Part shown: one piece after another, positions 9,348 to 45,588 of the stretch
Layout of the letters: each line of letters opens with the position of its first letter
Numbering within the stretch: position 1 is the stretch's first letter
NCBI GenBank assembly: GCA_035569395.1
Contig: DATMNC010000063.1
Span: 91,059-155,058 of the forward strand
Direction of reading: 5' to 3'
DNA from: Thermoanaerobaculia bacterium
Lineage (GTDB): Bacteria; Acidobacteriota; Thermoanaerobaculia; Gp7-AA8
Length of the DNA: 64,000 nt
Made by a program: the position numbers and the translations under genes
Notes under the pieces: generated by a model
What the model saw: only the letters and a program-made list of their open reading frames with translations
What the model was told of the DNA's origin: nothing
Databases searched by the model: none

Positions 9348-9442
9348 GAATGTTCAATGTTGAATGTTCACTGTTAAGTGTTGAATGTGGTGTCGTTTAG
9401 GTCACTTTCCATTCAACATTGAACATTCAACATTCAACATTG
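9348..9442. repeat. inverted arrays of GAATGTT / AACATTC heptamers (element E1)
   Basis: Left arm: GAATGTT CAATGTT GAATGTT CACTGTT AAGTGTT GAATGTG. About 18 nt of loop. Right arm: CATTCA ACATTGA ACATTCA ACATTCA ACATTG. Lies between the convergent ppdK and dedA stops. Confidence 0.85.
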
Positions 9443-9453
9443 CCTTTAAGCCT

Positions 9454-10026
9454 TCAACCTTCCCCGATCTCCTCGCGCTTTTCCTTCCACTTGTGGTACG
9501 CCCAGAAACCGAGCGCGGCCACGGCCAGCACGATCAGCCCGTATTTTTCAATATGCGCGGCCCGCCCGAGGACCCGCTCGACGGCACGGCCGAAGTAGAA
9601 GCCGGCAGTGCCGATGATGATCGCCCAGACCATGCACGTAAGTGCCTCGTATAGCAGGAACTTGAGCGTCGAGACCTTCGAGATGCCGATGATCACCGCG
9701 CAGGTGATGCGCAAGCCGTAGAGCCACTGGGTGATGAAGATCGCCGGCGCTCCGTAACGCTCGAAAAGGCGGATCCCCTTACCGAAGTGACGCTTCATCC
9801 TCGGGAAGCGGTCGAGCAGTCTCACCCCCTGTGTCCGTCCGAGCCAGAACCAGAAGACGTGACCGGAGTATGCGCCGGTGCAGGCTGTGGCGATGACGAA
9901 CGGGAGCCTGAGATAACCACGCTCGGCAAAGAAGCCGGCCATCACCAGGATCGTCTCCCCTTCGAGGAACGTCCCAACGAAGACAGCGAGGTATCCAAAC
10001 TTCTGGAGCAGTAGCTCGGGCGTCAT
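9454..10026 (-). CDS. DedA-family membrane protein
   Basis: FGYLAVFVGTFLEGETILVMAGFFAERGYL plus multiple TM segments, typical of DedA/SNARE-associated proteins. Confidence 0.85.
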   Translation of the reverse strand: MTPELLLQKFGYLAVFVGTFLEGETILVMAGFFAERGYLRLPFVIATACTGAYSGHVFWFWLGRTQGVRLLDRFPRMKRHFGKGIRLFERYGAPAIFITQWLYGLRITCAVIIGISKVSTLKFLLYEALTCMVWAIIIGTAGFYFGRAVERVLGRAAHIEKYGLIVLAVAALGFWAYHKWKEKREEIGEG

Positions 10027-10111
10027 TCAAACCCGCAAGGTGCAAGATTCGGGGAGGGTCATGAAATTTGGTCTGCGAAGACTAACATTGAACACGGTAG
10101 CGGAGGACCCG

Positions 10112-10657
10112 ATGAAACCGATCGCCATCAGTAGCTATCTCGCATTTGCAGCCCTGTCGCTGTATGCGGCCGATCCGCAGGCGGCGAAAGAGGACCCCAC
10201 GCCACAAACGGTGACGCACACCCAGAAGGTTCTCTCGCAGCAGAATAGTGTGACTGCCGGCGGCGACTCGCCGCTCGTCCGGGCAGCGAAGGCTAGTCAT
10301 GCCGGCAGGAAGTCATCGTCCCCGGTCATCACGAACGAAACACTCGTGCATGAGGGCGGACACTTCACGACCACGAGCTCGCAGCCACCACTTCCGTCCG
10401 GCGGCAGATCAGCGGGACCCTCCCTCGATCAGATGGAGGCTGAGGCACGTCGCGCCAGGATGGAAGCAGCGGCCTCCGCCGAGCTGGCCCGGAAGCTCGA
10501 AGAGCAGAAGACGTATGCGGCCGGCCGTGCGGCCATACGCGCGCAAGGCGACACGGCCGAAGGTCTCTACGCCGATTCACCGGGGGGCGAGAACGGAGCG
10601 ATCCAGACCGTCAAGCCGGAGACATTGCCGACAGCACCAGCGAAACCGCCGCAATAA
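10112..10657 (+). CDS. secreted hypothetical protein
   Basis: ATG at 10112 preceded by GGAGGA. Signal peptide MKPIAISSYLAFAALSLYA. The remainder is low-complexity. Confidence 0.55.
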   Translation: MKPIAISSYLAFAALSLYAADPQAAKEDPTPQTVTHTQKVLSQQNSVTAGGDSPLVRAAKASHAGRKSSSPVITNETLVHEGGHFTTTSSQPPLPSGGRSAGPSLDQMEAEARRARMEAAASAELARKLEEQKTYAAGRAAIRAQGDTAEGLYADSPGGENGAIQTVKPETLPTAPAKPPQ

Positions 10658-10745
10658 CGGTTGCGCGGTCTCGGGGTTGCGAGGTCTCGCGGTGTTGGCT
10701 AACTCAAGCAACCGCGAGACCTCGAAACCTCGAGACCCCGCAAGG
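10658..10745. repeat. inverted arrays of GGTTGCG / GGTCTCG octamer units (element E2)
   Basis: cggttgcgcggtctcggggttgcgaggtctcgcggtgttgg, a loop, then caaccgcgagacctcgaaacctcgagaccccgcaagg. Starts right after the stop at 10657 and ends at the gpsA stop. Confidence 0.85.
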
Positions 10746-10748
10746 CCT

Positions 10749-11750
10749 TTACGGTGCCGCCTCGGCTTTCAACGACCTCGTCATCAGCCGCTGCAACGCC
10801 GTTCGCGGCGACTGGCCCTGGTGCAGCACGCCATACATCTCGGAGGTGATGGGCATCTCAATGCCATGCCGGTCCGCCAACTCCTTGGCTGCCTTCGATG
10901 TCCTCACCCCCTCGGCGACGGTGCGCGATTCAGACAGGATCTCGGCGAGAGGCTTCCCTTTGCCGAGGGCCACACCCACGCTCCGGTTGCGTGACAGGGA
11001 GCCGGTGCAGGTCAGAACGAGATCGCCCATTCCGGCGAGACCGGCCAGCGTCTCGACGCGCCCGCCGAGGGCGACGGAAAGCTTCGTCACCTCGTGAAGA
11101 CCGCGGGTGATCAGCGCGGCGGTCGTGTTCGACCCCAGTCCGAGGCCTTCGATCACACCGGCGGCGACGGCGATGACGTTCTTCAGCGAGCCGGCCAGCT
11201 CCACGCCGGTGACATCGCTCGAGTTGTAAATGCGAAACGTCGGCGAGGACAAGGCGTGCTGCACCTCTTCGGCGAGCTCCAGATCGAGCGACGCGATGAC
11301 CGCCGCCGTCGGATCGCCGCGCGCCATCTCGAGCGCGAACGTCGGTCCTGACAGCACGGCGAACGAGCGAAGCGAGCGTCCCAATTCGAGCGCCGTCACC
11401 TCCGACATCCGTTGCAGGGTGTCGATCTCGATCCCTTTCGTCGCGCTGACGATGGCTGTCTCACCCCGAAGATGTGGCCGCATCTGAGCCAGGACGCCGC
11501 GGTAGTGGTGGCTCGGCACGATCATGAACATCACATCGCTGAACGCAACGGCCTCGGCGAGCGAGCTCGTAGCATGGACCCTTTGGTCGAGCTCGATGCT
11601 CGGCAAATAGATCGGGTTATGGCGCGTATCCCTGATCTCCGCGGCAACATTCGGATCGTGTGCCCACAGAACGACCTCGTTGCCGCAGCGCGCTGCCACC
11701 GCGGCCACGGCCGTTCCGAACGATCCAGCGCCGATGATCGAGAGCTTCAT
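10749..11750 (-). CDS. gpsA: NAD(P)H-dependent glycerol-3-phosphate dehydrogenase
   Basis: MKLSIIGAGSFGTAVAAV...HNPIYLPSIEL...NRSVGVALGKGK. The true start is the ATG at 11750. The track ORF extends to 12203, across plsY, and that extension is spurious. Confidence 0.9.
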   Translation of the reverse strand: MKLSIIGAGSFGTAVAAVAARCGNEVVLWAHDPNVAAEIRDTRHNPIYLPSIELDQRVHATSSLAEAVAFSDVMFMIVPSHHYRGVLAQMRPHLRGETAIVSATKGIEIDTLQRMSEVTALELGRSLRSFAVLSGPTFALEMARGDPTAAVIASLDLELAEEVQHALSSPTFRIYNSSDVTGVELAGSLKNVIAVAAGVIEGLGLGSNTTAALITRGLHEVTKLSVALGGRVETLAGLAGMGDLVLTCTGSLSRNRSVGVALGKGKPLAEILSESRTVAEGVRTSKAAKELADRHGIEMPITSEMYGVLHQGQSPRTALQRLMTRSLKAEAAP

Positions 11751-12427
11751 TCCTCTTTTCTCCCGTCGGTGCTGCCCATCCCGCCCATCCTGCGTTCCGT
11801 CCCCTGCGCCAGCCGGGAAATGTTGGAGTGATGTTTGAGGATGATGGCCAGCGCGATCAGGGTGCTGATGATGATCGTCCAGAACGGCGCATGGACCAGA
11901 AAGCGAAGAAACAGCGGAATCGACGCCGCGCTGAGAATCGAGGCCAGCGACACGAAGCGTGTGGCGAGTATGACGATCAGAAACACGAGCACACCAGCCG
12001 CGACAGCGATTGGATCGAGCGCCAGAAATACCCCGGTGGCCGTGGCCACCCCTTTTCCGCCGTGGAATCGCAGCCAGGCGGGGTACATGTGCGCGAGCAC
12101 GGCGATCAGTCCCGCCAGCGCGATCCACAGCGACATCGAGTAGAGGGGAGACGTATGCGCCGCGTCCGCAACGAGCGGCCAGTCCGGCCGTCCCACGATC
12201 CATCGCCCCAGGGCGACAGCGGCATAGCCCTTGGCGATGTCGAGAAGCAGGGCGATGATCCCCGGCACTTTCCCAAAGTTCCGGGCGACGTTCGTCGCCC
12301 CGACATTCCGGCTGCCGTGATAGCGAATGTCGGCTCCTGCCACGATCTTCACCACAAGATAACTGAACGGAATCGATCCGATCAGGTACGCAGCGATGAG
12401 GAGGAGGAATGGAAGGGCAGGCCCCAT
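11747..12427 (-). CDS. plsY: glycerol-3-phosphate acyltransferase PlsY
   Basis: YLIGSIPFSYLVVKIV...GSRNVGATNVARNFG...HGGKGVATATG are PlsY motifs. ATGA overlap with gpsA. Confidence 0.9.
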   Translation of the reverse strand: MGPALPFLLLIAAYLIGSIPFSYLVVKIVAGADIRYHGSRNVGATNVARNFGKVPGIIALLLDIAKGYAAVALGRWIVGRPDWPLVADAAHTSPLYSMSLWIALAGLIAVLAHMYPAWLRFHGGKGVATATGVFLALDPIAVAAGVLVFLIVILATRFVSLASILSAASIPLFLRFLVHAPFWTIIISTLIALAIILKHHSNISRLAQGTERRMGGMGSTDGRKEE

Positions 12428-12448
12428 GCGGCGGGTATTGTAGAGCGC

Positions 12449-12970
12449 TCAGCGTGAGGCCAGCCGCTCGACCGCGGCGCGCAACGTCGGCGGATCGATG
12501 GCTGGATACTTGTACAGCGAAGACGCGATCTCTTCGAAAAGCGCTCGCAGCCGATTCGGATCGACCAGACCGTCGCGCACCATCGAATCAACGTCAAGAA
12601 GATCTTTGTGATGAGCGCGCTCGAGCTTCGACAACGCTTGCGTATAGAAATCGAAGTGATAAAAAGAAATCGAGCCCTCGCGAGAAATGAAGGGACTCCG
12701 CTCTTCCCATCCGGGCAGCGCGGGGACGAAGTCGGCGGGCGAGGCCAACTCTACGTTGACGTGCAGACGTTCCTTTACCTCCGGGATCGCGCGAAGGATG
12801 CGATCGTTCTCCGGCACGATGGTGATGTCGACGTCGATCGTACTGACTCGCCATCCGCGAAGCACCGCGCTTGCACCTCCGGCGATGTAGACACGGCCCG
12901 GCTCCCGCGCCTCGGCGGCGATGGCGCGCATGAAGGCGCGAAGCCGTGGTTCCGTTACGGCTTCACGCAT
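12449..12970 (-). CDS. minimal nucleotidyltransferase-fold protein (DUF6036-like, tentative)
   Basis: GGASAVLRGWRVSTIDVDI fits the hG[GS]x9-13DhD nucleotidyltransferase signature. 173 aa. Overlaps the upstream small ORF by 16 nt. Confidence 0.6.
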   Translation of the reverse strand: MREAVTEPRLRAFMRAIAAEAREPGRVYIAGGASAVLRGWRVSTIDVDITIVPENDRILRAIPEVKERLHVNVELASPADFVPALPGWEERSPFISREGSISFYHFDFYTQALSKLERAHHKDLLDVDSMVRDGLVDPNRLRALFEEIASSLYKYPAIDPPTLRAAVERLASR

Positions 12971-13236: not shown

Positions 13237-13246
13237 GGCCAGCAGT

Positions 13247-14386: not shown

Positions 14387-14418
14387 GGAGGTCCTTTCGA
14401 AGTCTGGGGAAGTGCTCT

Positions 14419-14495
14419 GTTATCCGTTGTCGGTTGCCAGTTGTCGGTTGGTAAGCTTGAACGACCGCCGGCTCCGATAACCGATAACCGACAAC
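14419..14495. repeat. inverted arrays of GTTGTCG / CGATAAC heptamers (element E3)
   Basis: gttatccgttgtcggttgccagttgtcggttgg, a loop, then ccgataaccgataaccgacaac. Lies between two co-directional minus-strand genes, and the right arm touches the stop at 14496. Confidence 0.85.
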
Positions 14496-15455
14496 TCAGT
14501 TGTGCTCCATATCCTTCGCCCACTTCGTATAGATGCCTTTCGACATATAGCGTTCGGCGGCATCGGGGATGATCGTGACGACGCGTTTGCCGGGGCCGAG
14601 TTTTGCAGCCACCTGCACCGCCGCTGCGACATTCGCGCCCGCTGATGATGCCCCCAACACTCCCTCCTCGGCCGCAAGCCTGCGCACCATGACGAAGGCG
14701 GGATCGTCGTAGATCTGGATCACCTCGTCGGCCAGCGACATGTCCAGCACGGGCGGGATGAAAGACGACGCACCGATCCCTTCGACCTCGTGCGGACCGG
14801 CCTCTCCCCCCTTGAGGATCGAGCCCTGCGGCTCGACGACGACGCACCAGCAGGCAGGATTGCGCTCCTTCAGATACCTGGCCACTCCGCTGAACGTCCC
14901 GCCGGTACCGGCACCAGCCAGCCATCCATCGACGCGGCCTTCCATCTGCTCCCAGATCTCGGGACCGGTCGTGGAGTAGTGCGATTCGGTGTTGTAGGGA
15001 TTAGCGAACTGTTGCGGCACGTAGGAGTCGGGAATGGTGCGCGACAACTCCTCGGCCATGGCGATGGCACCCTTCATCCCATCGTCTTTCGGCGTCAGAA
15101 CGACCTGACCGCCGAGGGCCTTCATCACCTCGCGCTTCTCGATGGAGAAATTCTCGGGAACGCAGAGGATGACGTGGTACCCCATGCGCGTGCCCGCCAG
15201 CGCCAATGCGATTCCGGTGTTGCCCGCGGTCGGCTCGATGATCGTGCCGCCCTTGACGATTTTCCCATCGCGCTCGGCGCGCTCGATCATTCCGACGCCG
15301 ATACGGTCCTTGACGGAGAACGCGGGATTGAGAAACTCCAGCTTCACGAAGAGGTCGGCCATGTCCGGACCGGGGATGTTCGCGAGCTGAAGCATCGGCG
15401 TGTTGCCGACGAGATCGAGGATGCTGCGGACAGGTTTGGGGAGTTGGCGGCTCAA
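14496..15455 (-). CDS. cysteine synthase / cystathionine beta-synthase family PLP enzyme
   Basis: LDLVGNTPMLQL...LEFLNPAFSVKDRIG (PLP Lys)...EPTAGNTGIALA...GAGTGGTFSG. The track N-terminus (to 15578) is a translation of the repeat element. I propose the TTG at 15455, but the start is uncertain. Confidence 0.85.
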   Translation of the reverse strand: MSRQLPKPVRSILDLVGNTPMLQLANIPGPDMADLFVKLEFLNPAFSVKDRIGVGMIERAERDGKIVKGGTIIEPTAGNTGIALALAGTRMGYHVILCVPENFSIEKREVMKALGGQVVLTPKDDGMKGAIAMAEELSRTIPDSYVPQQFANPYNTESHYSTTGPEIWEQMEGRVDGWLAGAGTGGTFSGVARYLKERNPACWCVVVEPQGSILKGGEAGPHEVEGIGASSFIPPVLDMSLADEVIQIYDDPAFVMVRRLAAEEGVLGASSAGANVAAAVQVAAKLGPGKRVVTIIPDAAERYMSKGIYTKWAKDMEHN

Positions 15456-15481
15456 GCGGGGCGGGATTGTATACGGGGTTT

Positions 15482-15634
15482 CGCGGTCTCGCGGTTGCGG
15501 GGTCGCGCGGTGGGGTTGGGGGTTACTGGGTTGCTGAGTTGCTGGGCACGTTGACTCAGCAACCTTGCAACCAAGCAACCCAGTAACCGAGCACCAACCG
15601 CGAGACCGCGCAACCCCGAGACCCCCGCAACCGC
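15482..15634. repeat. long compound inverted array (GGTCTCG/GGTTGCG outer, GGTTGCTG inner; element E4)
   Basis: Left: cgcggtctcgcggttgcggggtcgcgcggtggggttgggggttactgggttgctgagttgctggg. Loop: cacgttga. Right: ctcagcaaccttgcaaccaagcaacccagtaaccgagcaccaaccgcgagaccgcgcaaccccgagacccccgcaaccgc. Confidence 0.85.
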
Positions 15635-15664
15635 AAAAAAACGGCGGGCCCGAGAGCCCGCCGT
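15635..15664 (-). terminator. rho-independent terminator of the zinc-ribbon gene
   Basis: The minus strand reads ACGGCGGGC-TCTCGG-GCCCGCCGT followed by TTTTTTT, 24 nt downstream of the stop at 15688. Confidence 0.8.
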
Positions 15665-15687
15665 CGTTGAAGTTATCGAATGAATGT

Positions 15688-17140: not shown

Positions 17141-17171
17141 CAGTTGATGACCAGCGTCCTGCAACTTGCAA

Positions 17172-17203: not shown

Positions 17204-17282
17204 CCAGGAGTCTGCGCGGCAGAACGATCTAGCGGAGATGGTGGCCGAGCCTTGGGCAACCAGCGCCGCCGGCCGTGCCGGC

Positions 17283-20879: not shown

Positions 20880-20889
20880 CTGGCCGGCG

Positions 20890-20985
20890 GCGCGTTGTCG
20901 GTTGTCAGTTGTCGGTTGTCAGTTGGCGCACGTCGAGGCTACGTAAATCGCGGCCTAGTCCGACAACCGATAACCGACAACGCGC
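20890..20985. repeat. inverted arrays of GTTGTCG/GTTGTCA heptamers (element E5)
   Basis: gcgcgttgtcggttgtcagttgtcggttgtcagttgg, a 33-nt loop, then ccgacaaccgataaccgacaacgcgc. Lies between convergent stops. Confidence 0.85.
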
Positions 20986-21001
20986 GGCGTAGCGCGCGCA
21001 G

Positions 21002-21639: not shown

Positions 21640-22119
21640 ATGCCCGATCGAAGGCAAAAAGCCAGAGGCAACATCCTGTCGCGCTTCGCGACGGCGGCGA
21701 CGAACTGGACCGGGTCGACCGGCGCGTTCGTCACTGCGGCGTTGATCATCATCGTCTGGGGCGCCACCGGATCGATCTTCCACTACTCCGACACCTGGCA
21801 GCTCATCATCAATACCGGCACCACCATCGTCACGTTTCTGATGGTCTTCCTCATTCAGCGCGCCCAGAACCGTGACGCACTGGCGGTACAACTCAAGCTC
21901 GACGAGATCGTGGCCGCCCTCGAAGGGGCCAGCAACCGCCTAATCTCGGTCGAAGACCTGGCCGAGGATGAGCTGAAGGTTCTACGCATCCACTACCAGC
22001 GCCTCGCTGAAATGGCCAAGCGCGACGAAACGATCACCGAGTCGCATTCGATCGAAGAAGCCGAGGCAAGGCATAACTTCAAGGAGGATCGGAGGAAGGC
22101 GAGGATGGGGACGAAGTAG
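21640..22119 (+). CDS. low-affinity iron permease family protein
   Basis: GSIFHYSDTWQLIINTGTTIVTFLMVFLIQRAQNRDALAVQLKLDEIV matches the conserved core of that family. Confidence 0.8.
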   Translation: MPDRRQKARGNILSRFATAATNWTGSTGAFVTAALIIIVWGATGSIFHYSDTWQLIINTGTTIVTFLMVFLIQRAQNRDALAVQLKLDEIVAALEGASNRLISVEDLAEDELKVLRIHYQRLAEMAKRDETITESHSIEEAEARHNFKEDRRKARMGTK

Positions 22120-22120
22120 G

Positions 22121-22287
22121 TTGCTCGGTTGCTGGGTTGCTGGGTTGCTGGGTTACTCGGTTGCTGGATTACTGGGTTGCTCGGTTGTCGGTTGTCGGTT
22201 GTCGGTTGTCGAGGATCAAATCGTAACCTGTAAACTCAGCAACTCAGCAACTCAGCAACTCAGCAACCGCGCGACCCCGCAACCCCG
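22121..22287. repeat. largest array: GTTGCTGG octamers + GTTGTCG heptamers facing CTCAGCAA octamers (element E6)
   Basis: gttgctcg gttgctgg x3 gttactcg gttgctgg attactgg gttgctcg gttgtcg x4, about 25 nt of spacer, then ctcagcaa x4 ccgcgcga ccccgcaa ccccg. Fills the whole gap between convergent stops. Confidence 0.9.
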
Positions 22288-22289
22288 TC

Positions 22290-23299: not shown

Positions 23300-23530
23300 A
23301 TGCACGTGAGCTCGATCAAGATCATCGTCGAGAAACATGACGACGGCTACGTCGCCTATCCTGTCGGAATGCGGGGCGTCGTCATCGGCGAAGGCGACAC
23401 GTACGATCAGGCGCTGGCGGACGTCCGGTCGGCGATTCAGTTTCACATCGAGACCTTTGGCGCTGGGGCGTTTGAGAATGACTCGCCGGTTCTCGACGCA
23501 TTCGTGGCCGAAACTGAAGTCACGGTCTGA
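23300..23530 (+). CDS. hicB: HicB-family antitoxin
   Basis: 76 aa. [44 protein letters not shown] is a HicB/UPF0150 fold signature. Its stop overlaps the hicA start. Confidence 0.75.
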
Positions 23531-23763
23531 TGCCGAAGTTTCCGGTGGACGCGCCGAAGGCGCGCGTGCTGGCTGCGTTTGGGCGGCTTGGTTTTACCGT
23601 CGTTCGAGAGCGTGAGCACATCGCACTGGAACGGGTGAACGAAGACGGCACGCGCACCCCGATGACCATTCCGAATCACCGCAGCCTGAGAGCTTCCACG
23701 CTTCGATCGATCTGTACACAGGCCGGAATCTCGCGCGACGACTTCCTGCACGCGTACCGATGA
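23530..23763 (+). CDS. hicA: HicA-family mRNA interferase toxin
   Basis: 77 aa. [23 protein letters not shown]...[30 protein letters not shown] resembles HicA (YcfA). Confidence 0.7.
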
Positions 23764-25045: not shown

Positions 25046-25083
25046 TGCGGCGCGGAGCCTAGCATGTTGTACGGAGCTTGGGT

Positions 25084-25112
25084 GACAACCGACAACCGAT
25101 TACCGACAACCG
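25084..25112. repeat. solo array of GACAACC heptamers (element E7, no partner arm)
   Basis: gacaacc gacaacc gattacc gacaacc g, in the divergent purA / cupin promoter region. I found no complementary arm nearby. Confidence 0.7.
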
Positions 25113-25145
25113 CCGAAGAGCTATAGTAATCAAGCGAGGACCCTC

Positions 25146-28916: not shown

Positions 28917-28953
28917 GTCCTCGCGCGATCGTGAGGTTTACTCTCAACCGATC

Positions 28954-29025
28954 ATCCGCAGATGTCGCAGATGTACGCAGATAAAACCGTTCCCCAATCT
29001 GCGTCTATCTGCGTCATCTGCGGAT
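28954..29025. repeat. inverted arrays of CGCAGAT units, period about 9 (element E8)
   Basis: atccgcagatg tcgcagatg tacgcagat, a 13-nt loop, then atctgcgtct atctgcgtc atctgcggat. Confidence 0.85.
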
Positions 29026-30262: not shown

Positions 30263-30502
30263 AGAACGCATTACAAGCAATCACTTATAGCTGCGGCGCG
30301 TTCGCGCCGGAGCTTGCGAAGACCTTTAAATGGCGCGTTTTCAATCACTTGGTCTTCGATCATTCGCTGATGCTACATATGGGACGCCTCGCGTGAGTAG
30401 GCGCCTAAGTGTTTGAAGAGACGTCGGTTAAGCATGCCTTGGGCATCACCGAGGCTAAGCCCGAAGGGCTGACATTCGTCGGTCCCCGAGGTTCAACGTC
30501 CC

Positions 30503-30755
30503 ATTCGATGAGGTTGGCGAAGCATTCGATGAGGTTAACGACCTATTCGATGAGGTCATCGACCCATTCAATGAGGTCGTCGAAGCATTCGATGACCTCG
30601 CCGAAGCATTCGATGACGTCGTCGGACCTATTCGATGAGGTCGGCGAAGCATTCGATGAGGTTGACGAGGCATTCGATGAGGTCGACGAAGCATTCAATG
30701 AGGTTGGCGAAGTATTCGATGAGGTTGGGGACCTCATCGATGACGTCGGAAAAGC
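30503..30755. repeat. eleven tandem copies of a 21-bp unit ATTCGATGAGGTYGRCGAAGC, plus a partial inverted twelfth
   Basis: Units start at 30503, 30524, 30545, 30566, 30587, 30608 (22 nt), 30630, 30651, 30672, 30693 and 30714. The last unit forms an 8-bp hairpin, gatgaggt-tgggg-acctcatc, with a partial inverted unit (30735-30755). Confidence 0.9.
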
Positions 30756-31011
30756 CGGCAATCTCACCAATAATGGTGAGCATCTTTACGGAAGGGGAGC
30801 TTGTAGCATGGGGTGTGAGTGTGGTACCATAACACTAGGTTGACACACGGTTATGGCAGATTTGCACGAAGCCGCCCTGGGAAGAGACGCGAAAACATCG
30901 CGGCGGGGCGGGGTGTGTTCGCCCGGATCGCGCCTGAATGGGCGGGAATCGTGGCGTCGTCTGTTTCGGCGCGGCCGAAGAAACCTCCGTTCCGCCGAGG
31001 GTTTCCTTGGC

Positions 31012-34073: not shown

Positions 34074-37000
34074 ATGCGCGCATTCCGCCGCCTGCTCTGC
34101 GTCTCGTTCGTGCTGTCGTCGTTCGTAGCGCCGCTGCGCGCGGCCGTCATCGGAACCGTCATCAACATCGACGGAAAGCCGCTCACCGGTGCCAAGGTGT
34201 CGCTCTTCGCGCCGGAGCTGATCACGGCACAGGGGCCGCGCCTCCTCTCGGACGAGCCGCAGCGGAAGCCGCTGGCGACGATGGCTACCGACTCCGGCGG
34301 CAAGTTCTCCTTCGACGTCCCCAAGGATCAGACGGTCGTCGACGTGCGCGTCGATGCCGCGGGGTACGCTCCCTCCGGCATCCGCCTCAACGCCGCCGAT
34401 GACGACGCCGGGGCGATGATGCTGGCACAGGCTCCATCCGTTCGGGGAACGATCACAGCAAACGGGAAGCCGGTCGCGAACGCCACCGTGATCATTCTCG
34501 GCGGCGCGGAGTACACGACGAAGACCGACGCCGACGGCCACTACAGCGCCCCCGATCCCTCGAAATGGGCCTTTCGCATCATCGTTCTTCATCCCGACTT
34601 CGCCATGGTCGAAGAGCTGCTCGGTCCCGCCGGGACAAAGAAGGGATCCGACTTCTCGATGACCGCCGGTGTGGCCATCAAGGGCCGCGTCGTCGCGGAA
34701 GACGGCCAGACGCCGGTTGCTGAGGCTCAGCTTTTTCTCGACGGCTGGCCGTCCGGCAAATCTGCTGCCGATGGAACCTTCACCATCGCCCACGCCCCCA
34801 AAGACTGGGAGACCGTCGTGGCACGCAAAGACACCCGTGTGGCGCAGCGCGCACGGACGGCGGCCGTGGCCATGCTGAAGCTGGGCAAGAGCGCGACCGT
34901 CAGCGGCAACGTCCGCGACGTGAAGTCGCAACTGCCGGTGGCCGGTGCGCGCGTCTCCCTCGGCCCCACCGGACGCTTCGGCGCCCGCGACGCCTCGGTC
35001 GATGCGATCTCCGACGCCAAAGGAAACTTCATCATCACGGGAGTGGCCGCGGGCACGTACGAGATCCGGCCGACCCGGCCAGGCTACGAGATCAGCGGCA
35101 TGCAGGCGGTGCATCTGAAAGCGGCCGATGCCGCCCAGAAAACACTCTACGCGACGGCGCGCGGGCGCATCAGCGGGTCGGTGATCGACGAGGACAAGCG
35201 GCCGGTGGCGGCCGCGCATCTGACGACGCGTCGGGCCTCGCGCAACAACGACATGTTCGCCCTGATGGGGCGCGGGGGTGCCGGCAGCGATGGCTACAGC
35301 GCGCCCGACGGCCATTTCGTCCTTCGCAATGTGGAGATCGAGGCCGATCTGCAGGTCGATGCGGTGAAGCGCGGCTTTCCGGTGGCGAAGTCGCCTTCGC
35401 TCAAACTGGCCGCGGCCGAGCGGAAGACCGGCCTGACGATCACCATTCCGCGCGGCGTGGCCATTACGGGCAAGGTCACCGACAAGGACAAGAAGCCGCT
35501 ATCCGGCGTCGGCGTCGAGGCGATCGAGTCGTCCGCCGATGCGTCGGCCGGGATGCGCCGGATGGTCGTATCGAGCATGCAAGGCAACCGCAACGACGAG
35601 TTGGTCCGCACGGGCAGCGACGGCACGTTCCTGATCCGGGTCAAGGAAGGAACGTACGACCTGGCCTTCAAGCGCGAGGGTTACTCGGCGAAGTCGGTGC
35701 GCGGCACGAAAGTCGACGCGAATACGAAGCCGTTGGAGGTCATGCTCGCTCCCGGCGTCGAGATCAGCGGCCGCGTCACGCGCGGCGGAGCGGGCGTGGA
35801 GGGAGTGACCGTCCGCAGCATCTCGCAGGACGGCATGGCCTCGGCGGTTACGTCGAGCGACGGCTCGTTCACCATCACCGATCTTACCCCCGGGCAGATG
35901 ATGCTGAACGCCAGCAAACAGGATTCGTTCATCCAGGAGATGCGCTCGGTCACCGCTCCCGCGCGCGACGTTCTCATCGATCTCCCTCCCGGCGGCCGGA
36001 TCACCGGTCACGTGCTGGACAAGAGCTCGCACCAGCCGGTGACGTCGTTCCAGGCAGGCGTAACGACCTCCCGCGGCGGCGGGGGCATGGTGGTGATGAT
36101 GCCGCCGATGCAGAAGCAGTTCACGAGCGACGACGGCTCCTTCGTCCTGGAAGGCATCAAGCCGGGCACGACACAGGTCGTCGTGAACGCACCCGGCTAC
36201 ACCACGGCGCGCGTACCGAACATCGAGGTCGAGGACGGCAAGACGGCGCCGGACGTCGAGGTCGACGTCGAGAGCGGATCGAAGCTGACCGGCCACGTTA
36301 CCGATGCGAGCGGCACCCCGCTGGCGGGCGTGGCGGTGAGCAGCAATCCCATGGCCGGGGGCGGCGGGCGTGTGATGCGCTTCGACGCGACCGACAGCAG
36401 CGCCACGACCGACCCGAGCGGCGAGTACTCGTTCGATTCGCTCGAGGCCGGCGAGAAGACGTTCTCGTTCTCCAGGAGCGGGTACGTCGCCCAGCAGCAG
36501 ACGGTGACGATCACCGCCGGCAAAGACGCGCGTCTCGACGTGCAGCTTTCGAGCGGGATGCGGGCCGCCGGCTTCGTCGTCACCGACGGCGGCGCGCCGA
36601 TTCCGGATGCATCGGTGCGCGCGGTCTCCGCCGCCGAGATGGACGGCGGCCGCGATGCACGCACCGACGCCAACGGCGCCTTCGCCTTCGAAGGTCTCGC
36701 TCCCGGGCACTACACGTTCACGGCGGGGAAAACCGGTTTCGCGCCGGCTACTCTGCGCGACATCGACATCGCGACATCGGGACCGGTGCGCGTCATTCTG
36801 ACGGGCGGCGGCGTCATCACCGGCCACGTCAACGGCCTGACCGCGCCGGAGCTCGAGCAGGCCACGGTCTCCGCCACCGTCTCGGGAAGTGGCGGCGGGG
36901 GCGGGTTCGGGGGCGGCGGGGGCGGTGGCGCGGCCTCGGTTGCCGTCGATGCCGCCGGCAACTTCCGCATCGATGGGGCTCCCTCAGGCACGGTCCGCGT

Positions 37001-38117: not shown

Positions 38118-38160
38118 GGCGTTGGCCGAGTGAGCCGGCATCCGTTACGTCAAAGCGTTT

Positions 38161-38219
38161 CACCACAGAGACACAGAGGCCACAGAGAAAACCTCTGTGT
38201 TCTCTGAGCCTCTGTGGTT
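38161..38219. repeat. inverted arrays of CACAGAG units (element E9)
   Basis: caccacagaga cacagagg ccacagagaa aa cctctgtg ttctctgag cctctgtggtta. The flanks (38140-60 and 38220-45) extend the imperfect stem. Confidence 0.85.
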
Positions 38220-38260
38220 AAAGCTTTTCGGATGTAACAACGCGGCAGAGGATCACTGAC

Positions 38261-38863: not shown

Positions 38864-38879
38864 AGGCTTGAAGAATACC

Positions 38880-42095: not shown

Positions 42096-42138
42096 CCGTC
42101 CCGCAAACCGTGGGCTTACAGGGAAAATTCAGGCCGGT

Positions 42139-44466
42139 CTACGTCGCCGAGACCGTTTGCGGGTCCTCGGCTGAAGGGGGCGGCAATTGCTCGACCGCGG
42201 GAGTAACGGGCAACGAGAACGAGAAAGTCGTCCCCTGCCCTTCGCGGCTCTCCACCCAGATCGAGCCGCCGTGGCGCTCGACGATCTGCTTTGTAATGTA
42301 GAGACCCAGCCCGAGGCCGCCGTAATTCGTCGATGACACCTGGCGTCCACGATGGAAGCGCTCGAAGACCTGTCCAATCTCATCGGTGGGAATGCCAATC
42401 CCGCGGTCGGCCACGGACGTCACGAGCTGGTCGCCTCGTTCTTCCACGCTGACGAGGATCTCACTGCCGTCCGGCGAATACTTCACCGCGTTCTCCATCA
42501 GGTTTCCGAGCACCTGCTCGAGGCGGTCGCGGTCGCCGAGGACGCGCTTGTGACCGACGGGGAGATTGAGTTGGAAACGGCGCTCGCTGACGGCGGTGTG
42601 ATGGCGATGGACGACGTCGCTCACGAACGTCGTCCATGGGATCGGCTCGCGCCGGATCTCGAGACGGCCGGTCTCGATCCGTGAGACGTCGAGCAGCTCG
42701 AGGATGAGACGCGACATCCGATCGATCTGATCGAGGGCGATGTCGAGATACTCCTCCGAGGTGCGCAGATCGTTTTCGCGGATCAGCGTCTTCGCCAGTT
42801 GCGTGTACCCCTTGATCGATGTCACTGGAGTGCGGAGCTCATGCGAGGCGATGGAAAGGAACTCGTCCTTCAGGCGCGAGAGGTCTTCCACCTTGCGCCG
42901 GGCATCGACCTGATCGGTGTAGAGCTTGGCGTTTTCGATGGCCAGGGCGGCGCGCTCGGCGAGGATCTCGGCCAGCGGCAGCTTCTCGTCGCTCATGGCG
43001 CGATCGGGATCGTTTGCGGCGATGACCAGCGCACCGAGCATCTCGCGGCGCGTGCGCAGCGGAAGAATCAGGAGCGAGGCCAGCTTCATCGGCGCGGCGT
43101 GATAGCCCCCTTCGAGCTCGGGCCCGGCCGGCTGAGCACCGCCGAGGTTTTGTGTCAGTGAGGGATAGCCGGTGCTGACGACCTGGCCGATGATCCCTTC
43201 GCCGACCACGAGCGGCTGCCGGTAGATGTACGACCAGGCTAACCCGATGGAGGTCATCTCCCGGTGATAGATCGAAGCAACACGCAGCTCGCTCGAGTCC
43301 GACGACTTGAGAATGACCGCGGCCCAGTCGCCCAACACCTCGGCTACACGTTCCGCGATCGCCTGCGTGACCCAGACCGGATCGATGTTGCTGGCGAAGA
43401 AGGCCCCGGCGTCGGCCAGGATCTGCGCCCGCTCGGCCTGCAGTTGCATCGCCTCCTCGAGCCGCCGCCGCTCGGTGATGTCGCGGAACGTGACGATGAC
43501 GCCGGAGATGCGGCCGTCGTCACGCAGAGGCGTAGCGCTTACGGAGATTGCGATCTGCCTCTCCTCCCGCATCACCATCATCGTGATGTCGCGCACGGGG
43601 CGGCCGGTAGACAGCGCCCGCGCCGCCGGCAGCTCACTGGCGTCGACCGGCTCGCCCGCATCGTTCAACAAGCCATAGACCTCGGCATGTTGAAAGATCG
43701 GCACGCCAACGTCCGATCGTCCAAGCAGATTTTTCGCGGCCCGATTCAGGTACGCGGTCTTTCCCTCGGCGTCGACCAGCACGACGCCATCCGACATGCC
43801 TCCGATCATCGTCTCGGTGCGTTTCACCTGCCGGTTGATCGAGGCGATGAGCGATTGCTGGATACGCCAGATCAGGTACGCGGCCAGGACGATGATGATG
43901 GCGCTGACGATCACCATCAGCAGAGTCAGACCGGTGCGCATGCTGCCGATGCGCGCAAGATCGTGACGCTCCTCGCGCTCGTGCTCGTCAGCCATCGTGC
44001 CGGCATAGTCGGGAGCAGCGCGGTAGAGCTTCGACGCCTCGACCATGTACTCATTGGCGTTGGCGTCACGATCTTCGCGGAGAGAAGACATTTCCTGGTC
44101 GGTGAGTTGCTTCACCTCGTTGAAGTTCTTGCGCATCGAGGCGACGACCTTCGCGTCGTGCGGATCGGTGGCCAGTTGGCTGGCCCTGGCGGCGACCTTC
44201 CTGAAGTCGCGGATGGCCTCGTAATACTGCTGCAGGAACTGGGTCTGCCGCGTGAGCGCGAAACCGCGCGCCGCGGCCATGATCATCAGCGTGTCGTCAT
44301 TCATCGCGTAGAGGGCGTCGAGGAGCGGCGTCGCGCCCTCGACGATGCGCGACTCCTGGCGATTGGAGAGATGAAGGATTCCGATCGTCAGCGCCAGGCC
44401 CGCGGCGATGAGTACCACCAACACCGCGAAGGCGCTCCACAACGTGCTCCGAATCGAGGAATCCAT
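42139..44466 (-). CDS. sensor histidine kinase (CHASE3-HAMP-PAS-GAF-HisKA-HATPase architecture, by eye)
   Basis: N-terminal TM segment followed by a CHASE3-like region. FLSIASHELRTPVTSI (H-box). GLGLGLYITKQIVERHGGSIWVESREGQGTTF (G2 box). No response regulator is adjacent. Confidence 0.85.
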   Translation of the reverse strand: MDSSIRSTLWSAFAVLVVLIAAGLALTIGILHLSNRQESRIVEGATPLLDALYAMNDDTLMIMAAARGFALTRQTQFLQQYYEAIRDFRKVAARASQLATDPHDAKVVASMRKNFNEVKQLTDQEMSSLREDRDANANEYMVEASKLYRAAPDYAGTMADEHEREERHDLARIGSMRTGLTLLMVIVSAIIIVLAAYLIWRIQQSLIASINRQVKRTETMIGGMSDGVVLVDAEGKTAYLNRAAKNLLGRSDVGVPIFQHAEVYGLLNDAGEPVDASELPAARALSTGRPVRDITMMVMREERQIAISVSATPLRDDGRISGVIVTFRDITERRRLEEAMQLQAERAQILADAGAFFASNIDPVWVTQAIAERVAEVLGDWAAVILKSSDSSELRVASIYHREMTSIGLAWSYIYRQPLVVGEGIIGQVVSTGYPSLTQNLGGAQPAGPELEGGYHAAPMKLASLLILPLRTRREMLGALVIAANDPDRAMSDEKLPLAEILAERAALAIENAKLYTDQVDARRKVEDLSRLKDEFLSIASHELRTPVTSIKGYTQLAKTLIRENDLRTSEEYLDIALDQIDRMSRLILELLDVSRIETGRLEIRREPIPWTTFVSDVVHRHHTAVSERRFQLNLPVGHKRVLGDRDRLEQVLGNLMENAVKYSPDGSEILVSVEERGDQLVTSVADRGIGIPTDEIGQVFERFHRGRQVSSTNYGGLGLGLYITKQIVERHGGSIWVESREGQGTTFSFSLPVTPAVEQLPPPSAEDPQTVSAT

Positions 44467-44609
44467 ACTTGCCGGCTCAGCCGGTTTCGGGATGCAAGAT
44501 CGACGCCGGTGCCCAGCGGCGGACGTTGATCCAAGTACCTTCGTTTCAGCGACTTCCAGATGGGCATCGCTGGAACGGCGGATGCAGGATCGGTCCCCGG
44601 AGGAGTCTC

Positions 44610-45458
44610 ATGGAACTCAGGCCGTTGCGCAACGCTACGATTTCATTCGGCCTCGTGGCCATCCCGGTCCGCTTCTACACGGCCACGAAATCGGAAGACG
44701 TTCACTTCAATCTGTTGCACGCAAGTTGCGGCACCCGCGTCAATCGTAAATGGTGGTGCCCGCATCACGAGAAGATCGTCGACTCGGATGAGTTGATCCG
44801 CGGCTATGCGATCTCGAAATCAAAGTACGTGACCTTCACCGACGAGGAGATCGAGACGCTGGAGACAGACGACAACCGCGCCCTCGAGATCACCGAGTTC
44901 GTCGATCTGCATGAAATCGATCCGCTCTTCTTCGAGAAGGCCTATTTTCTGGGACCGTCGCCCGGCGGCGGAAAGACCTACCGGCTTCTCTCCCAGGCCA
45001 TGAAGAAGCAGGACAAAGTGGCCGTGGCCCGCTGGGTCGCGGCGGGCAAGGAGCACCTTGTGGTCCTGCGGCCGTACGATAAGGGCCTCGTGCTGCACAC
45101 GATGTATTACGCCGACGAGGTACGCGACTTCGGCGCGATCGATCTCGAATCGTCGCCGGCGAGTGAGAAGGAAGTCAAACTCGCCGAGATGCTGATCGAT
45201 GAGTTGACCGAGAAGAAGTTCGATCCTCTCGCGTTCAAGGATGAATACCGCAAACGCCTGCTGGACCGCATCCGCGCCAAATCGAAAGGCAAGGCGATCG
45301 AGCCGGAGGAAAAAGAAGAGGAGAAAGGCGGCGAAGTCATCGACATCATGGATGCGCTCCGCCGCAGTCTCAGCAAAGGCCGCGGCGCGGCAAAACCGGC
45401 ACGCGCGAGGCCTGTTGCGCGAAGGAAGACGACTTCGAGGAAGAGAAAGGCATCGTGA
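44610..45458 (+). CDS. ku: Ku DNA end-binding protein
   Basis: ATG at 44610 after GGAGGAG. ISFGLVAIPVRFYTATKSEDVHFNLLH...IRGYAISKSKYVTFTDEEI...YFLGP. Basic C-terminal tail. Confidence 0.9.
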   Translation: MELRPLRNATISFGLVAIPVRFYTATKSEDVHFNLLHASCGTRVNRKWWCPHHEKIVDSDELIRGYAISKSKYVTFTDEEIETLETDDNRALEITEFVDLHEIDPLFFEKAYFLGPSPGGGKTYRLLSQAMKKQDKVAVARWVAAGKEHLVVLRPYDKGLVLHTMYYADEVRDFGAIDLESSPASEKEVKLAEMLIDELTEKKFDPLAFKDEYRKRLLDRIRAKSKGKAIEPEEKEEEKGGEVIDIMDALRRSLSKGRGAAKPARARPVARRKTTSRKRKAS

Positions 45459-45462
45459 ACGA

Positions 45463-45588
45463 GGTCGTTGGGGTTCGCGGTTGCTGGGTTGCTGATTGCT
45501 GGGCTGCTGAGTAGAGCCGAGCAACACCAGCGACGAAACCCAGCAACTCTGCAACCCAGCAACTCAGTAACCCCGAAACCCAGCAACC
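45463..45588. repeat. inverted arrays of GGTTGCTG / CAGCAACY units (element E10)
   Basis: ggtcgttggggttcgcggttgctgggttgctgattgctgggctgctgag, a loop, then caacaccagcgacgaaacccagcaactctgcaacccagcaactcagtaaccccgaaacccagcaacc, ending directly at the ATG at 45589. Confidence 0.85.

Follow-up and report, generated by a model that had tools for sequence, protein, structure and literature searches.

Facing arrays of short tandem units in the intergenic DNA of a Thermoanaerobaculia bacterium, possible palindromic microsatellites with the G-rich arm first

The intergenic DNA of an uncultured soil bacterium of the Thermoanaerobaculia (Acidobacteriota), considered here in a window of 64,000 nucleotides (the whole stretch analysed), carries arrays of short tandem units, mostly as facing inverted pairs (Table 1). 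It is proposed, tentatively, that these elements are palindromic microsatellites, built by slippage and for the most part tolerated, in which the roles of terminator or stabiliser are at most secondary; with the same reserve, they are regarded as neither dedicated terminators nor mobile elements of conserved sequence. This reading is favoured because elements are also found between divergent promoters and behind a canonical terminator, and because no sense-strand bias is seen. The arrays are not a new class. They belong together with the STRRs of cyanobacteria and the GGGAATC arrays of Xanthomonas, with many unit families in the present case. New here are the recurrence of families, the swapping of elements at orthologous sites, an indel of one unit, nesting in mirror order, and the rule that the G-rich arm lies 5'.

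Tandem Repeats Finder, applied to the 64-kb window, and reading of the sequence confirmed arrays of 7-10-nt units, in 2.7-11.6 copies, at all ten sites where a sequence-only reading had placed them. At a period of 7-9 and at least 2.8 copies, the window contains 21 arrays, compared with 1.1 +/- 0.95 expected from 40 Markov shuffles; 17 of the 21 are intergenic, though intergenic DNA makes up only 10.2% of the window. The inverted-repeat search agreed with the earlier description of nine sites with an inverted partner and one solo arm: facing reverse-complement arms of 22-61 nt (72-100% complementary, loops of 5-79 nt) were found at nine of the ten sites, and no facing arm was found at 25084-25112. 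The assignment of the sites to six convergent, three co-directional and one divergent gap is likewise correct on gene annotation. The unit length, given as 7-9 nt, requires amendment: the units are of 7, 8 and 9-10 nt, and the 8-mers often alternate in twos, being then read as a 16-mer. At the gathering threshold, Rfam matched three tRNAs in the window and no array. A CRISPR array was rejected, since CRISPRs have 23-47-nt repeats with unique spacers of similar size, whereas the units here measure 7-10 nt, directly adjoin one another, and face an inverted partner. It is hardly conceivable that the arrays were created by short-read assemblers at low-complexity sequence. Two assemblies do differ by one unit in one array; however, the remaining arrays are identical in independent ENA contigs, orthologous elements occur in many MAGs from different studies, two chromosome-level assemblies of relatives (OY970284.1 and OY970380.1) among them, and cultured isolates of other phyla have the same kinds of array. 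Because the arrays are present in independent assemblies and in chromosome-level relatives, they are not artefacts, an outcome for which the earlier description had allowed.

Table 1. Arrays and paired elements of the window. MFE and z are given for the two strands, separated by a slash.
Position	Strand	Element	Gene context	MFE (kcal/mol)	z
9348..9442		Paired, GAATGTT family; 5' arm 9348-9389, loop of about 20 nt, 3' arm 9410-9442	Gap between convergent stops of pyruvate phosphate dikinase (+) and VTT-domain gene (-)	-40.0 / -35.6	-6.7 / -4.9
10658..10745		Paired, alternating 8-mers NGGTTGCG + NGGTCTCG	Begins 1 nt past one stop, ends 3 nt short of convergent glycerol-3-phosphate dehydrogenase stop	-63.8 / -61.6	-9.0 / -8.0
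14419..14495		Paired, GTTGTCG/GTTATCG family	Between co-directional (-) genes of PALP-family enzyme and Cys/Met-metabolism PLP enzyme; abuts upstream stop codon		-3.4 on both strands
15474..15634		Nested in mirror order, outer GGTTGCG/GGTCTCG, inner GGTTGCTG	Flanked by conserved canonical terminator (15640-15665, -) and conserved GTATACAAT box upstream of PALP gene	about -96	-8.8
20887..20988		Paired, GTTGTCG/GTTGTCA family; GCGC clamps at base	Gap between convergent stops of 197-aa protein and PagL-like protein		-5.2 / -6.7
22119..22288		Largest element; + strand has about 8 GGTTGCTN, 4 GGTTGTC, loop, 4 AACTCAGC, then CGCGACC/CGCAACC units; at about 22175-22211 the unit number differs by one (7 nt) between assemblies	Occupies gap between convergent stops of iron permease and PALP enzyme	-75.8 / -69.9	-7.5 / -7.8
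25084..25112	+	Solo arm, 4 GACAACC units, C-rich on + strand; no fold	Between divergent purA and cysteine dioxygenase genes, amid their -10-like boxes		about 0
28954..29025		Paired, CGCAGAT core, period 9-10 nt	Between convergent aminotransferase gene and YfbU-domain gene; preceded by a small hairpin, then a T-rich tract (28919-28936)	-48.4 / -46.6	-10.4 / -9.6
38158..38222		Paired, CACAGAG core, period 8-9 nt	Gap between convergent stops of 1400-aa CarboxypepD_reg repeat protein and 200-aa protein		-6.4 / -7.5
45463..45588		Paired, GGTTGCTG family; C-rich arm stops exactly at ATG at 45589	Fills co-directional (+) gap from ku to LigD 3'-phosphoesterase-domain gene	-66.0 / -69.7	-6.4 / -6.1
4782..4816	+	Intragenic array, CCAGCAAC x 4.4, same octamer family	In frame in glyS (glycyl-tRNA synthetase beta subunit)		
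57097..57123	-	Intragenic array, GTTGTCG x 3.9 on + strand, GACAACC in mRNA, same heptamer family	Inside 413-aa PALP-family gene, apparently thrC; encodes ...DDNRQPKTDN...		

It had been supposed that the unit sequence is specific to each locus. This does not hold, as a small set of families recurs at unrelated loci, in relatives, and in distant phyla. GTTGTCG/GTTATCG units are found at five window sites and GGTTGCTG at four; at least eight unrelated families exist side by side in one genome, and in multi-family elements they are nested in mirror order. The families of the window are also present in other phyla, cultured isolates included, and the architecture itself extends to at least six further lineages (Pyrinomonadaceae, Blastocatellia, Nitrospirota, Clostridiaceae, a cyanobacterium, and Bryobacterales), the dominant period across phyla being 7 nt. 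The window units contain GG at most and lack the G3+ runs on which the G-quadruplex trait of the Xanthomonas and Nostoc families depends; G3+ runs are confined to some of the units of relatives (GGGGAGT, GGGAGTC). The sequence CACAAAGG, related to the CACAGAG unit of 38158..38222, sits at another gap in L083 and L089.

Folding of both strands gave very stable structures for each of the nine paired elements (MFE from -31 to -97 kcal/mol, z from -3.4 to -10.4) and no fold for the solo arm. The suggestion that the periodic arms pair in several registers was upheld by permuting the units within the 3' arm: in single-family hairpins the fraction of shuffles at least as stable was 0.71-1.0, and both multi-family elements were weakened (0.05 for 10658..10745 and 0.017 for 15474..15634). 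Arms of complementary units pair in any register, so that gain or loss of a unit leaves the hairpin intact, and the RNA fold would return the flanking stop and start codons to proximity. Register-tolerant pairing and this fold probably explain the toleration of elements in any type of intergenic gap and, occasionally, in frame within genes.

The comparison with orthologous sites supports slippage, one of the origins first suggested. Over about 55.5 kb, the window and the ENA contigs differ by two SNPs and a single indel, precisely one GTTGTCG unit, and between the window and L084 the unit numbers shift independently in each arm; growth by slippage is supported by this lone 7-nt indel and by the independent arm changes between species. 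Unit family changes between relatives as well as unit number: where flanking proteins are 85-98% identical, an orthologous gap may lack an element, have one, or have one of another family with an unrelated loop, and whole elements are cleanly lost and replaced between species at about 95% amino-acid identity. Separate REP-like palindromes were also observed in the same gaps of relatives. Orthologous loops are 54-74% identical and the arms keep the unit consensus (e.g., GGGGAGT in L085, L094, L095, and L098); because the consensus is conserved while the loops decay, pairing within a unit family appears to be maintained. It is proposed that a short intergenic inverted repeat or solo array would grow by replication slippage of a 7-8-nt unit, each arm independently. 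New layers may then arise in the loop, leading to mirror-ordered nested families, and whole elements are lost and replaced over species divergence.

Slippage that is purely neutral does not account for all of the data. Among facing pairs, the 5' arm is the G-rich one in 77 cases versus 6, when ordinary hairpins, taken as a control, show no such bias (396:388). Two families have no exception (27:0 and 36:0, together 63:0), the 5' arm is G-rich or neutral at all paired sites of the window, and the rule spans unit families, gene contexts, and phyla. In solo arrays it is the C/A-rich strand that is found in mRNA (29:8). Neither the strand rule, nor the strong G/C asymmetry of the units, nor the conservation of the unit consensus relative to loops is predicted by neutral slippage, and some directional process or constraint would have to enforce the G-rich 5' arm. 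That the rule is the footprint of a dedicated directional mechanism, and not of selection on hairpin stability, seems doubtful; two forms of such a mechanism would suit the geometry. In the first, a general single-strand binder covering about 7 nt would coat the first-made G/T-rich arm and decide hairpin formation; if hairpins are gated in this way, the arrays would be tunable switches for read-through or translational coupling. In the other form, the elements would be scars of breaks, short G-rich repeats being added to both 3' ends before the ends are joined, which would give a head-to-head geometry as in fused telomeres. Genes for Ku and LigD are present in the organism.

Six of the 10 convergent gaps of the window contain an element, versus one of its 10 divergent gaps. 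Over the window and 17 syntenic loci, convergent gaps carry elements at 2-3 times the density per kb; the gene calls of relatives are crude (third-position GC), and orthologous sites do not count as independent. No enrichment in convergent gaps emerges from a wider, repeat-ascertained set limited to one family: its 33 classified GGTTGCTG elements, drawn from about 49 loci of Thermoanaerobaculia, comprise 4 convergent, 11 divergent, and 18 co-directional cases vs 25, 33, and 64 gaps available. Every type of gap holds elements. Arrays begin 1-12 nt past stop codons; the distances in another sample were 3, 3, 6, 6, 10, and 23 nt, with one outlier of 387 nt.

These positions raise the question of whether the elements are dedicated bidirectional terminators or 3' mRNA stabilisers, in which the hairpin is selected and slippage only builds or tunes it. 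This is rather unlikely, though it deserves serious consideration. Very stable hairpins on both strands, abutment on stop codons, and the preference for convergent gaps in the window and syntenic loci argue for it, as do the scarcity of canonical terminators in the region scanned, the conservation of the arm consensus relative to loops, and the similar clustering of Xanthomonas arrays near stop codons (PMC4692102); the convergent preference and the few canonical terminators count at the same time against mere toleration. Other palindromes, or small hairpins with a T-rich tract behind them, occupy the corresponding gaps of relatives. In the PALP2/FeP gap the array-less relatives have such a hairpin and tract, canonical-terminator-like by eye, and this suggests functional substitution. 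The elements share with intrinsic (Rho-independent) terminators the stable hairpin downstream of a stop codon. The short GC-rich stem, loop of 3-8 nt, and directly adjoining 3' U-tract of such terminators, however, are not seen: no U-tract exists on either side (at most four T within 10 nt past any element, either strand), stems are of 22-61 nt with periodic mismatches, and loops are of 5-79 nt. Elements occur in promoter gaps, too. In the cysteine dioxygenase/purA gap they lie between two -10-like boxes, and relatives have full hairpins of other unit families there; in six relatives full hairpins are located between divergent promoters. In the zfT/PALP gap the element is placed behind a conserved canonical terminator, and two relatives have no element there. 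The element within the ku-ligD pair ends at an ATG, a place at which to terminate would do harm; in several close relatives the gaps measure only 8-30 nt and contain no hairpin; and in co-directional gaps the sense RNA folds more weakly than the antisense in 10 of 12 cases. Neither the 33-element sample nor the strand rule, which hairpin stability cannot explain, fits such a role. The missing U-tract, the sites between divergent promoters and behind a canonical terminator, and the absence of wider convergent enrichment and of sense bias weaken this role, which the sequence-only reading had proposed.

It is improbable that the arrays are protein-binding sites, whether for a low-specificity binder of single-stranded RNA or DNA (about 7 nt; a cold-shock domain, S1, or other OB fold), which would coat the first-made arm and so gate the hairpin, or for an omega-like binder of heptads in dsDNA. 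The dominant 7-nt period across phyla would agree with this reading, and the G-rich arm comes first on every transcript or exposed strand, exactly as a competitor of hairpin folding needs. Omega prefers direct and convergent heptads to divergent ones, which also speaks for this reading; the heptads of its operators have the consensus WATCACW and lie upstream of promoters, near an omega gene. The omega (RHH) operators of inc18 plasmids were nevertheless rejected as a match, the units being unlike WATCACW and most sites lying at 3' ends; no RHH-family Pfam match was found among the window genes scanned or annotated in L081, L222, and L223. A precedent is given by CspB, which binds heptamer repeats with one protein per heptamer (MacGregor, 2015; PMC4679880). 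However, a single sequence-specific protein is excluded because the unit families of one genome number at least eight and are unrelated, and no candidate gene is linked to the elements. There is no core-plus-linker signature, because unit variation is not concentrated at fixed positions (the two most variable positions hold a share of 0.73 vs 0.68 expected). Cyanobacteria, which are not known to have CspA-type proteins, show the same architecture. Transposase-driven spread of non-autonomous mobile elements (MITE, REP/BIME, or REPIN type) is a very unlikely explanation, even if the same unit families recur at many unrelated loci and, in related genomes, at differing gaps, one whole element gives way to another between close species, and L084 has a whole extra inner hairpin within the loop of an element that it has in common with the window. 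Each element has its own loop and flanks, both across the window and among 15 one-family elements of a single genome (the loops of the 15 GGTTGCTG elements of OY970284.1 have no similarity visible on inspection), arm lengths vary continuously by whole units, and the same units occur in unrelated phyla. No terminal inverted repeats independent of the arrays were seen, nor target-site duplications at empty versus filled junctions, where the ambiguity is 2 nt at most, and no transposase, RAYT (Y1) included, was found among the window proteins scanned. With unique internal loops and such junctions, the elements are not MITEs.

The sequence-only reading recognised no described family; however, the Xanthomonas, cyanobacterial, and TAACTGA arrays are published precedents for arrays of this kind. 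Rehm et al. (2015; PMC4692102) reported in Xanthomonas GGGAATC heptamer arrays near stop codons, which form 70-75 convergent inverted pairs in each genome. They are mostly of about four copies and mostly intergenic and differ in length between species; their one dominant unit contains G3 and was studied as a G-quadruplex former (PMC4692102). The arrays here resemble them in the tandem 7-nt units, the intergenic position at or overlapping stops, and the convergent opposite-strand pairs, which are G-first, and all traits common to the Xanthomonas and STRR kind (at least three head-to-tail copies, intergenic location, G-first pairs, variation in unit number) are found. Unlike in Xanthomonas, there are at least eight families of 7-10 nt, no G3 runs in the window units, nested mirror-order layers, whole-element exchange at orthologous gaps, and an Acidobacteriota host. 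The same study cites heptanucleotide repeats of Calothrix and reports few inverted pairs in Nostoc (PMC4692102). Cyanobacterial STRRs share with the present arrays several heptamer families per genome and a tandem, intergenic arrangement, and in the Heteroscytonema locus L054 facing inverted arrays are G-first as here; STRRs are described mainly as direct arrays, whereas most arrays here are paired and many units are 8-mers. The Calothrix repeats are reportedly the 1990 STRRs of Mazel et al. The TAACTGA direct repeats of Beggiatoaceae, cyanobacteria, and Bacteroidetes (MacGregor, 2015; PMC4679880) are intergenic in several phyla, with the A/C-rich strand in mRNA just upstream of start codons; they are almost exclusively direct, with one inverted case, and translational regulation was proposed. 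Rotated, TAACTGA reads GATAACT, and a single mismatch separates this from the units GATAACC and GACAACT seen here; the solo-array bias and the arm ending at ATG 45589 are further similarities, but the arrays here are mainly facing inverted pairs. The REP, BIME, and REPIN sequences of proteobacteria are also intergenic, located after stops, and form hairpins and inverted pairs, and REPs protect upstream mRNA from 3' exonucleases. By analogy with REP, the elements at convergent 3' ends probably form barriers that lack a U-tract and impede read-through and 3' exonucleases; any such role is regarded as secondary and context-dependent. REPs, however, have a conserved 20-40-nt palindrome in hundreds of copies and depend on RAYT, whereas the arms here are periodic 7-8-mer arrays of several families, with unique loops and no linked transposase.

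Heptamer repeats have been recognised since the 1990s as over-represented in bacterial intergenic DNA, without an accepted origin or function. The lineage studied here is a dense natural experiment, with many families together, nested layers, quick turnover at orthologous sites, and complete genomes of relatives. In practice, the arrays offer hypervariable markers and are likely break points of short-read assembly in Acidobacteriota. Two regularities constrain any model, namely the 5' position of the G-rich arm in pairs and the presence of the C/A-rich strand in mRNA for solo arrays. If the strand rule reflects a mechanism, then it would bear on how palindromes are created and tolerated in bacteria and on 3'-end formation in terminator-poor phyla.

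Tandem Repeats Finder detects short-period arrays at all ten intergenic sites of the window, and the units that the sequence-only reading had assigned to them are the same on reading the sequence. Arrays with a period of 7–9 nt and at least 2.8 copies number 21, against 1.1 ± 0.95 expected (mean over 40 Markov shuffles), which is far beyond chance; 17 of them are located in non-coding DNA, which constitutes 10.2% of the window. An inverted-repeat search recovered a facing arm at nine sites and none at 25084–25112, in agreement with the earlier description of nine paired sites and a solo arm. The arms of the paired sites are 22–61 nt long, 72–100% complementary, and 5–97 nt apart. Folding on both strands, suggested by that reading, showed strong hairpins on each, with near-equal energies; the nine paired elements reach, as single strands, minimum free energies of −31 to −97 kcal/mol (z-scores −3.4 to −10.4), and the solo arm does not fold. 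The stems are composed of 6–8 bp blocks with single mismatches between them. The description of the repeats as short tandem units was correct, but the given length of 7–9 nt was too narrow, as several elements consist of 8-mers, often two alternating, and two have periods of 9–10 nt. A conserved core with a variable linker within the units was considered and rejected (the two most variable positions hold 0.73 of the variation vs. 0.68 expected); variation was concentrated by position at p < 0.05 in only 2 of 26 arrays. At the gathering threshold, Rfam matches in the window are three tRNAs and nothing else.

The window was compared with two matching contigs of the ENA assembly ERZ27253680, and over ~55.5 kb two substitutions and one indel were found. 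The sole indel falls in the array at about 22175–22211 and amounts to exactly one GTTGTCG unit; arrays therefore differ by whole units between near-identical genomes. Both ENA contigs stop within a 1400-aa CarboxypepD_reg repeat gene (35046–35959), and the window thus represents another assembly, bridging this repetitive coding region. Orthologous intergenic gaps were then extracted from 17 syntenic loci of Thermoanaerobaculia MAGs (Acidobacteriota), found with a PagL-like protein, two of them on complete-chromosome assemblies (OY970284.1 and OY970380.1). In the window, the gap between PALP2 and the iron permease is made up of arrays (170 nt), and in five relatives (loci L086, L090, L094, L095, and L098) it is 8–32 nt long, without an array. 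The window and L084 have GGTTGCTG plus GTTGTCG units in this gap, L082 has GGTCTCGC units, L083 and L089 a CACAAAGG hairpin, and L088 a hairpin of GAATGTT type. Between PALP1 and CysMet, GTTRTCG units are found in the window and L084; L082, L094, and L095 carry GGGAGTCG there, and L093 carries GATGAAS. The units appearing in the relatives’ gaps (GAATGTT, CACAGAG-like, GGTTGCTG, GTTGTCG, and GGTCTCG) are the small set present at other sites of the window. The unit “alphabet” is therefore common and its assignment to gaps is not, so the earlier claim that each unit is private to its locus does not hold. The PagL–hyp197 element has 3 units in its left arm and 4.5 in its right arm in the window, and 4 and 3.5, respectively, in L084; these independent unit counts, together with the one-unit indel, support the slippage that the sequence-only reading had listed among possible explanations. 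All relatives keep a canonical terminator, GGCGGGCYCTCGGGCCCGCC with a T-run after it, in the zfT–PALP1 gap. The element is placed between this terminator and a conserved GTATACAAT box, and it is absent from L082 and L093. In the window it consists of two layers in mirror order, and L084 adds a third at the centre, a GGTTATCG hairpin that has a loop of its own. Orthologous gaps gain, lose, and exchange elements; these draw on shared unit families, with nesting in mirror order. It is also worth noticing that the zfT–PALP1 terminator is nearly the sole convincing canonical one in 20 kb. In some relatives (L082 10598–10767, L097, and L093), gaps occupied by tandem-unit hairpins in the window contain REP-type palindromes, among whose motifs are GGCGTCTCGCC and GTCATTCCGAA...TTCGGAATGAC; hairpin-forming DNA of various kinds seems to be drawn to these gaps.

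The relation of the two arms was analyzed by shuffling the unit order of the 3′ arm. In single-family elements the fold was not weakened (0.71–1.0 of the shuffles were at least as stable), and in the two multi-family elements it was (0.05 and 0.017). Families are therefore mirrored between the arms and unit variants are not. Fine-scale co-evolution of the arms was rejected, since in single-family elements the mirror order of variants is no better than shuffled. Mirrored families without mirrored variants would be expected from independent slippage in the two arms of a common seed. The loops of orthologous elements are only 54–74% identical and both arms keep the same unit consensus. As the loops decayed and the arm consensus was kept, something preserves complementarity at the family level; either selection or templated correction would do so.

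The elements obey a strand rule, by which the G-rich arm is 5′ in the facing pair (G-first). This order was found for 27 (GGTTGTC)n arrays with a partner and the reverse for none, and (GGTTGCTG)n pairs are 36 G-first and 0 C-first among the matches listed. With all unit families and loci considered, the numbers are 77 G-first vs. 6, and for loci chosen without the repeat pattern 32 vs. 2; a few exceptions are genuine. A strict exact pattern for G-first and C-first pairs matched only two of the loci examined. The order is alike in convergent, co-directional, and divergent gaps. It is not a general property of hairpins or terminators: GC-rich perfect hairpins outside the arrays are divided 396:388 and U-tract-bearing ones 15:10 after removal of duplicates, with which an earlier, redundant ratio of 24:9 was lost. 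Of the solo (GGTTGTC)n arrays in co-directional gaps, 29 place the C/A-rich strand in mRNA and 8 the other strand, which agrees with the figures for Nostoc (Rehm et al., 2015; PMC4692102) and with the orientation of TAACTGA arrays. In paired GGTTGCTG elements, among the matches listed, the longer arm is the one C-rich in mRNA in 12 vs. 1. The hairpin energy is the same for both mirror forms, and the rule must therefore come from the making of the elements or from a directional reading process. Per unit, nearest-neighbour RNA:DNA energies are about −11.2 kcal/mol for r(GACAACC) and −10.1 kcal/mol for r(GGUUGUC); a weaker RNA:DNA hybrid of the 3′ arm was rejected as the cause, because these values go in the wrong direction. 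Cyanobacteria are not known to have Rho, and their pairs are G-first in 4 of 4 cases. This, together with the C-rich mRNA strand of the solo arrays, weakens avoidance of Rho as a universal cause.

The gene contexts of the ten sites (six convergent, three co-directional, and one divergent) were confirmed. Considering window gaps of at least 40 nt, elements occupy 6 of 10 convergent, 3 of 9 co-directional, and 1 of 10 divergent ones. Over the window and the 17 syntenic loci, whose sites are partly orthologous and hence not independent, there are 1.44, 0.52, and 0.67 elements per kb of gap, respectively. A wider sample was taken from a pattern scan for (GGTTGCTG)3, using Thermoanaerobaculia loci among the matches listed, with crude gene calls; OY970284.1 alone gave at least 17 loci. 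The elements of this sample are 4 convergent, 11 divergent, and 18 co-directional, with 25, 33, and 64 gaps available. The enrichment in convergent gaps is thus visible in the window, but among the matches listed the wider GGTTGCTG sample has no such preference. The element of the divergent CDO–purA gap has a conserved −10-like box on either side, TATAGT (18 nt before the CDO ATG) and TGCTAGGCT (10 nt before the purA ATG), and is probably outside both transcripts. A conserved promoter-like box, GTATACAAT, was also observed upstream of the PALP gene; boxes so close to start codons suggest that mRNAs of this lineage are leaderless or have very short leaders. Several elements have a C-rich arm ending 0–17 nt ahead of a start codon that lacks an obvious Shine–Dalgarno sequence (window 45588/45589, L276, and L273; e.g., CAGCAACC-ATG), recalling the Beggiatoaceae TAACTGA arrays, which end 1 nt before start codons.

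The occupancy of the convergent window gaps, the highest of the three gap types, speaks for elements being dedicated terminators or stabilisers. However, no U-tract follows any element on either strand. In co-directional gaps the sense-strand fold is weaker than the antisense one in 10 of 12 cases, by which RNA-level selection on the transcribed strand was also rejected. Moreover, the ku–ligD gap is filled by an element right up to the ATG. These observations argue against dedicated terminators, as does the missing convergent preference in the wider sample, and we regard this explanation as unlikely. Barrier effects may still occur where elements happen to sit at 3′ ends. A tentative reading, the most plausible to us although held with less than even confidence, is that of slippage-grown, tolerated inverted arrays. 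They would have started as a short inverted repeat and grown through replication slippage in each arm, and they would be tolerated because a self-pairing insert brings its flanks back together; a terminator or stabiliser role would be secondary, if there is any. That the arrays serve for protein binding is less probable than a terminator role, and their being classical mobile elements is very improbable. Assembly artefacts can be practically dismissed, since the arrays are seen in independent assemblies.

Two arrays of the intergenic unit families are also present, in frame, within genes (see the table). The one in glyS, an essential gene, resembles an insertion born from a repeat. The PALP-family gene carrying the other is apparently thrC of a thrA-thrB-thrC operon. 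The 21-nt repeat is of a kind unlike the intergenic arrays, and its ORF has no Pfam match. The HicA pair is missing in some relatives, with a differing purA–PALP2 distance. The low-GC stretch may be an acquired island.

Features of the window with their positions
Feature	Position	Context	Remark
In-frame octamer array, CCAGCAAC x 4.4	4782–4816	Glycyl-tRNA synthetase beta-subunit gene (glyS)	Same family as intergenic elements
In-frame heptamer array, GACAACC in mRNA	57097–57123	Near N-terminus, 413-aa PALP-family gene	Encodes DDNRQPKTDN
Apparent thrA-thrB-thrC operon	56146–60844		
Conserved promoter-like boxes	15396–15470; 25046–25145	Close to start codons	
Intrinsic terminator, − strand	15640–15665	After double treble-clef zinc-finger gene	Textbook type, 11-bp GC stem and T-run; same position in L082–L095
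Small HicA-toxin gene and partner gene	23300–23763	Between purA and PALP gene	
21-nt tandem repeat, 10.6 copies	30502–30725	144-aa ORF 30409–30843 (+)	In frame, FDEVGEA-like heptad peptides
ku gene, then LigD 3′-phosphoesterase-domain gene	44610–46395	Non-homologous end-joining	One of the largest hairpin elements between
Low-GC stretch (0.55–0.58 vs. about 0.63 elsewhere)	48678–56032	ABC-transporter-like operon	tRNA-Pro and tRNA-Arg at one end, tRNA-Ser at the other

The sequence-only reading recognized no described family, but close precedents exist. In each of two Xanthomonas genomes, ~185 GGGAATC heptamer arrays were reported, with a strong bias to adjoin or overlap stop codons, lengths varying between species, and no established function; GGGGA(C/T)T arrays of Nostoc were also treated and heptanucleotide repeats of Calothrix cited (Rehm et al., 2015; PMC4692102). 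TAACTGA arrays, mostly “forward” and just upstream of start codons, were described in Beggiatoaceae, cyanobacteria, and Bacteroidetes (MacGregor, 2015; PMC4679880). Rotated, TAACTGA reads GATAACT, which differs at a single position from GATAACC and from GACAACT, both units of this lineage. The Calothrix repeats are presumably the STRRs of Mazel et al. (1990). Beyond PMC4692102, PMC4679880, and the works cited there, no further descriptions of inverted heptamer arrays were found in the literature. The facing-array architecture is also present at unrelated loci, picked for other reasons, of Pyrinomonadaceae, Blastocatellia, Nitrospirota, Clostridiaceae (32% GC), a Heteroscytonema cyanobacterium, Bryobacterales, and Acidobacteriaceae. 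In pattern scans, exact (GGTTGTC)3 occurs at more than 118 loci in many phyla, and exact (GGTTGCTG)3 at at least 100 loci, mostly of Thermoanaerobaculia, also of Paenibacillus, Streptomyces, Acidovorax, and others. The arrays thus belong to a kind of repeat reported in other phyla, and the precedents and wide occurrence make them a rich new instance of a described, unexplained kind and no new category. The strand rule merits a proper genome-wide test; the category is known, and this system is an unusually informative representative of it.
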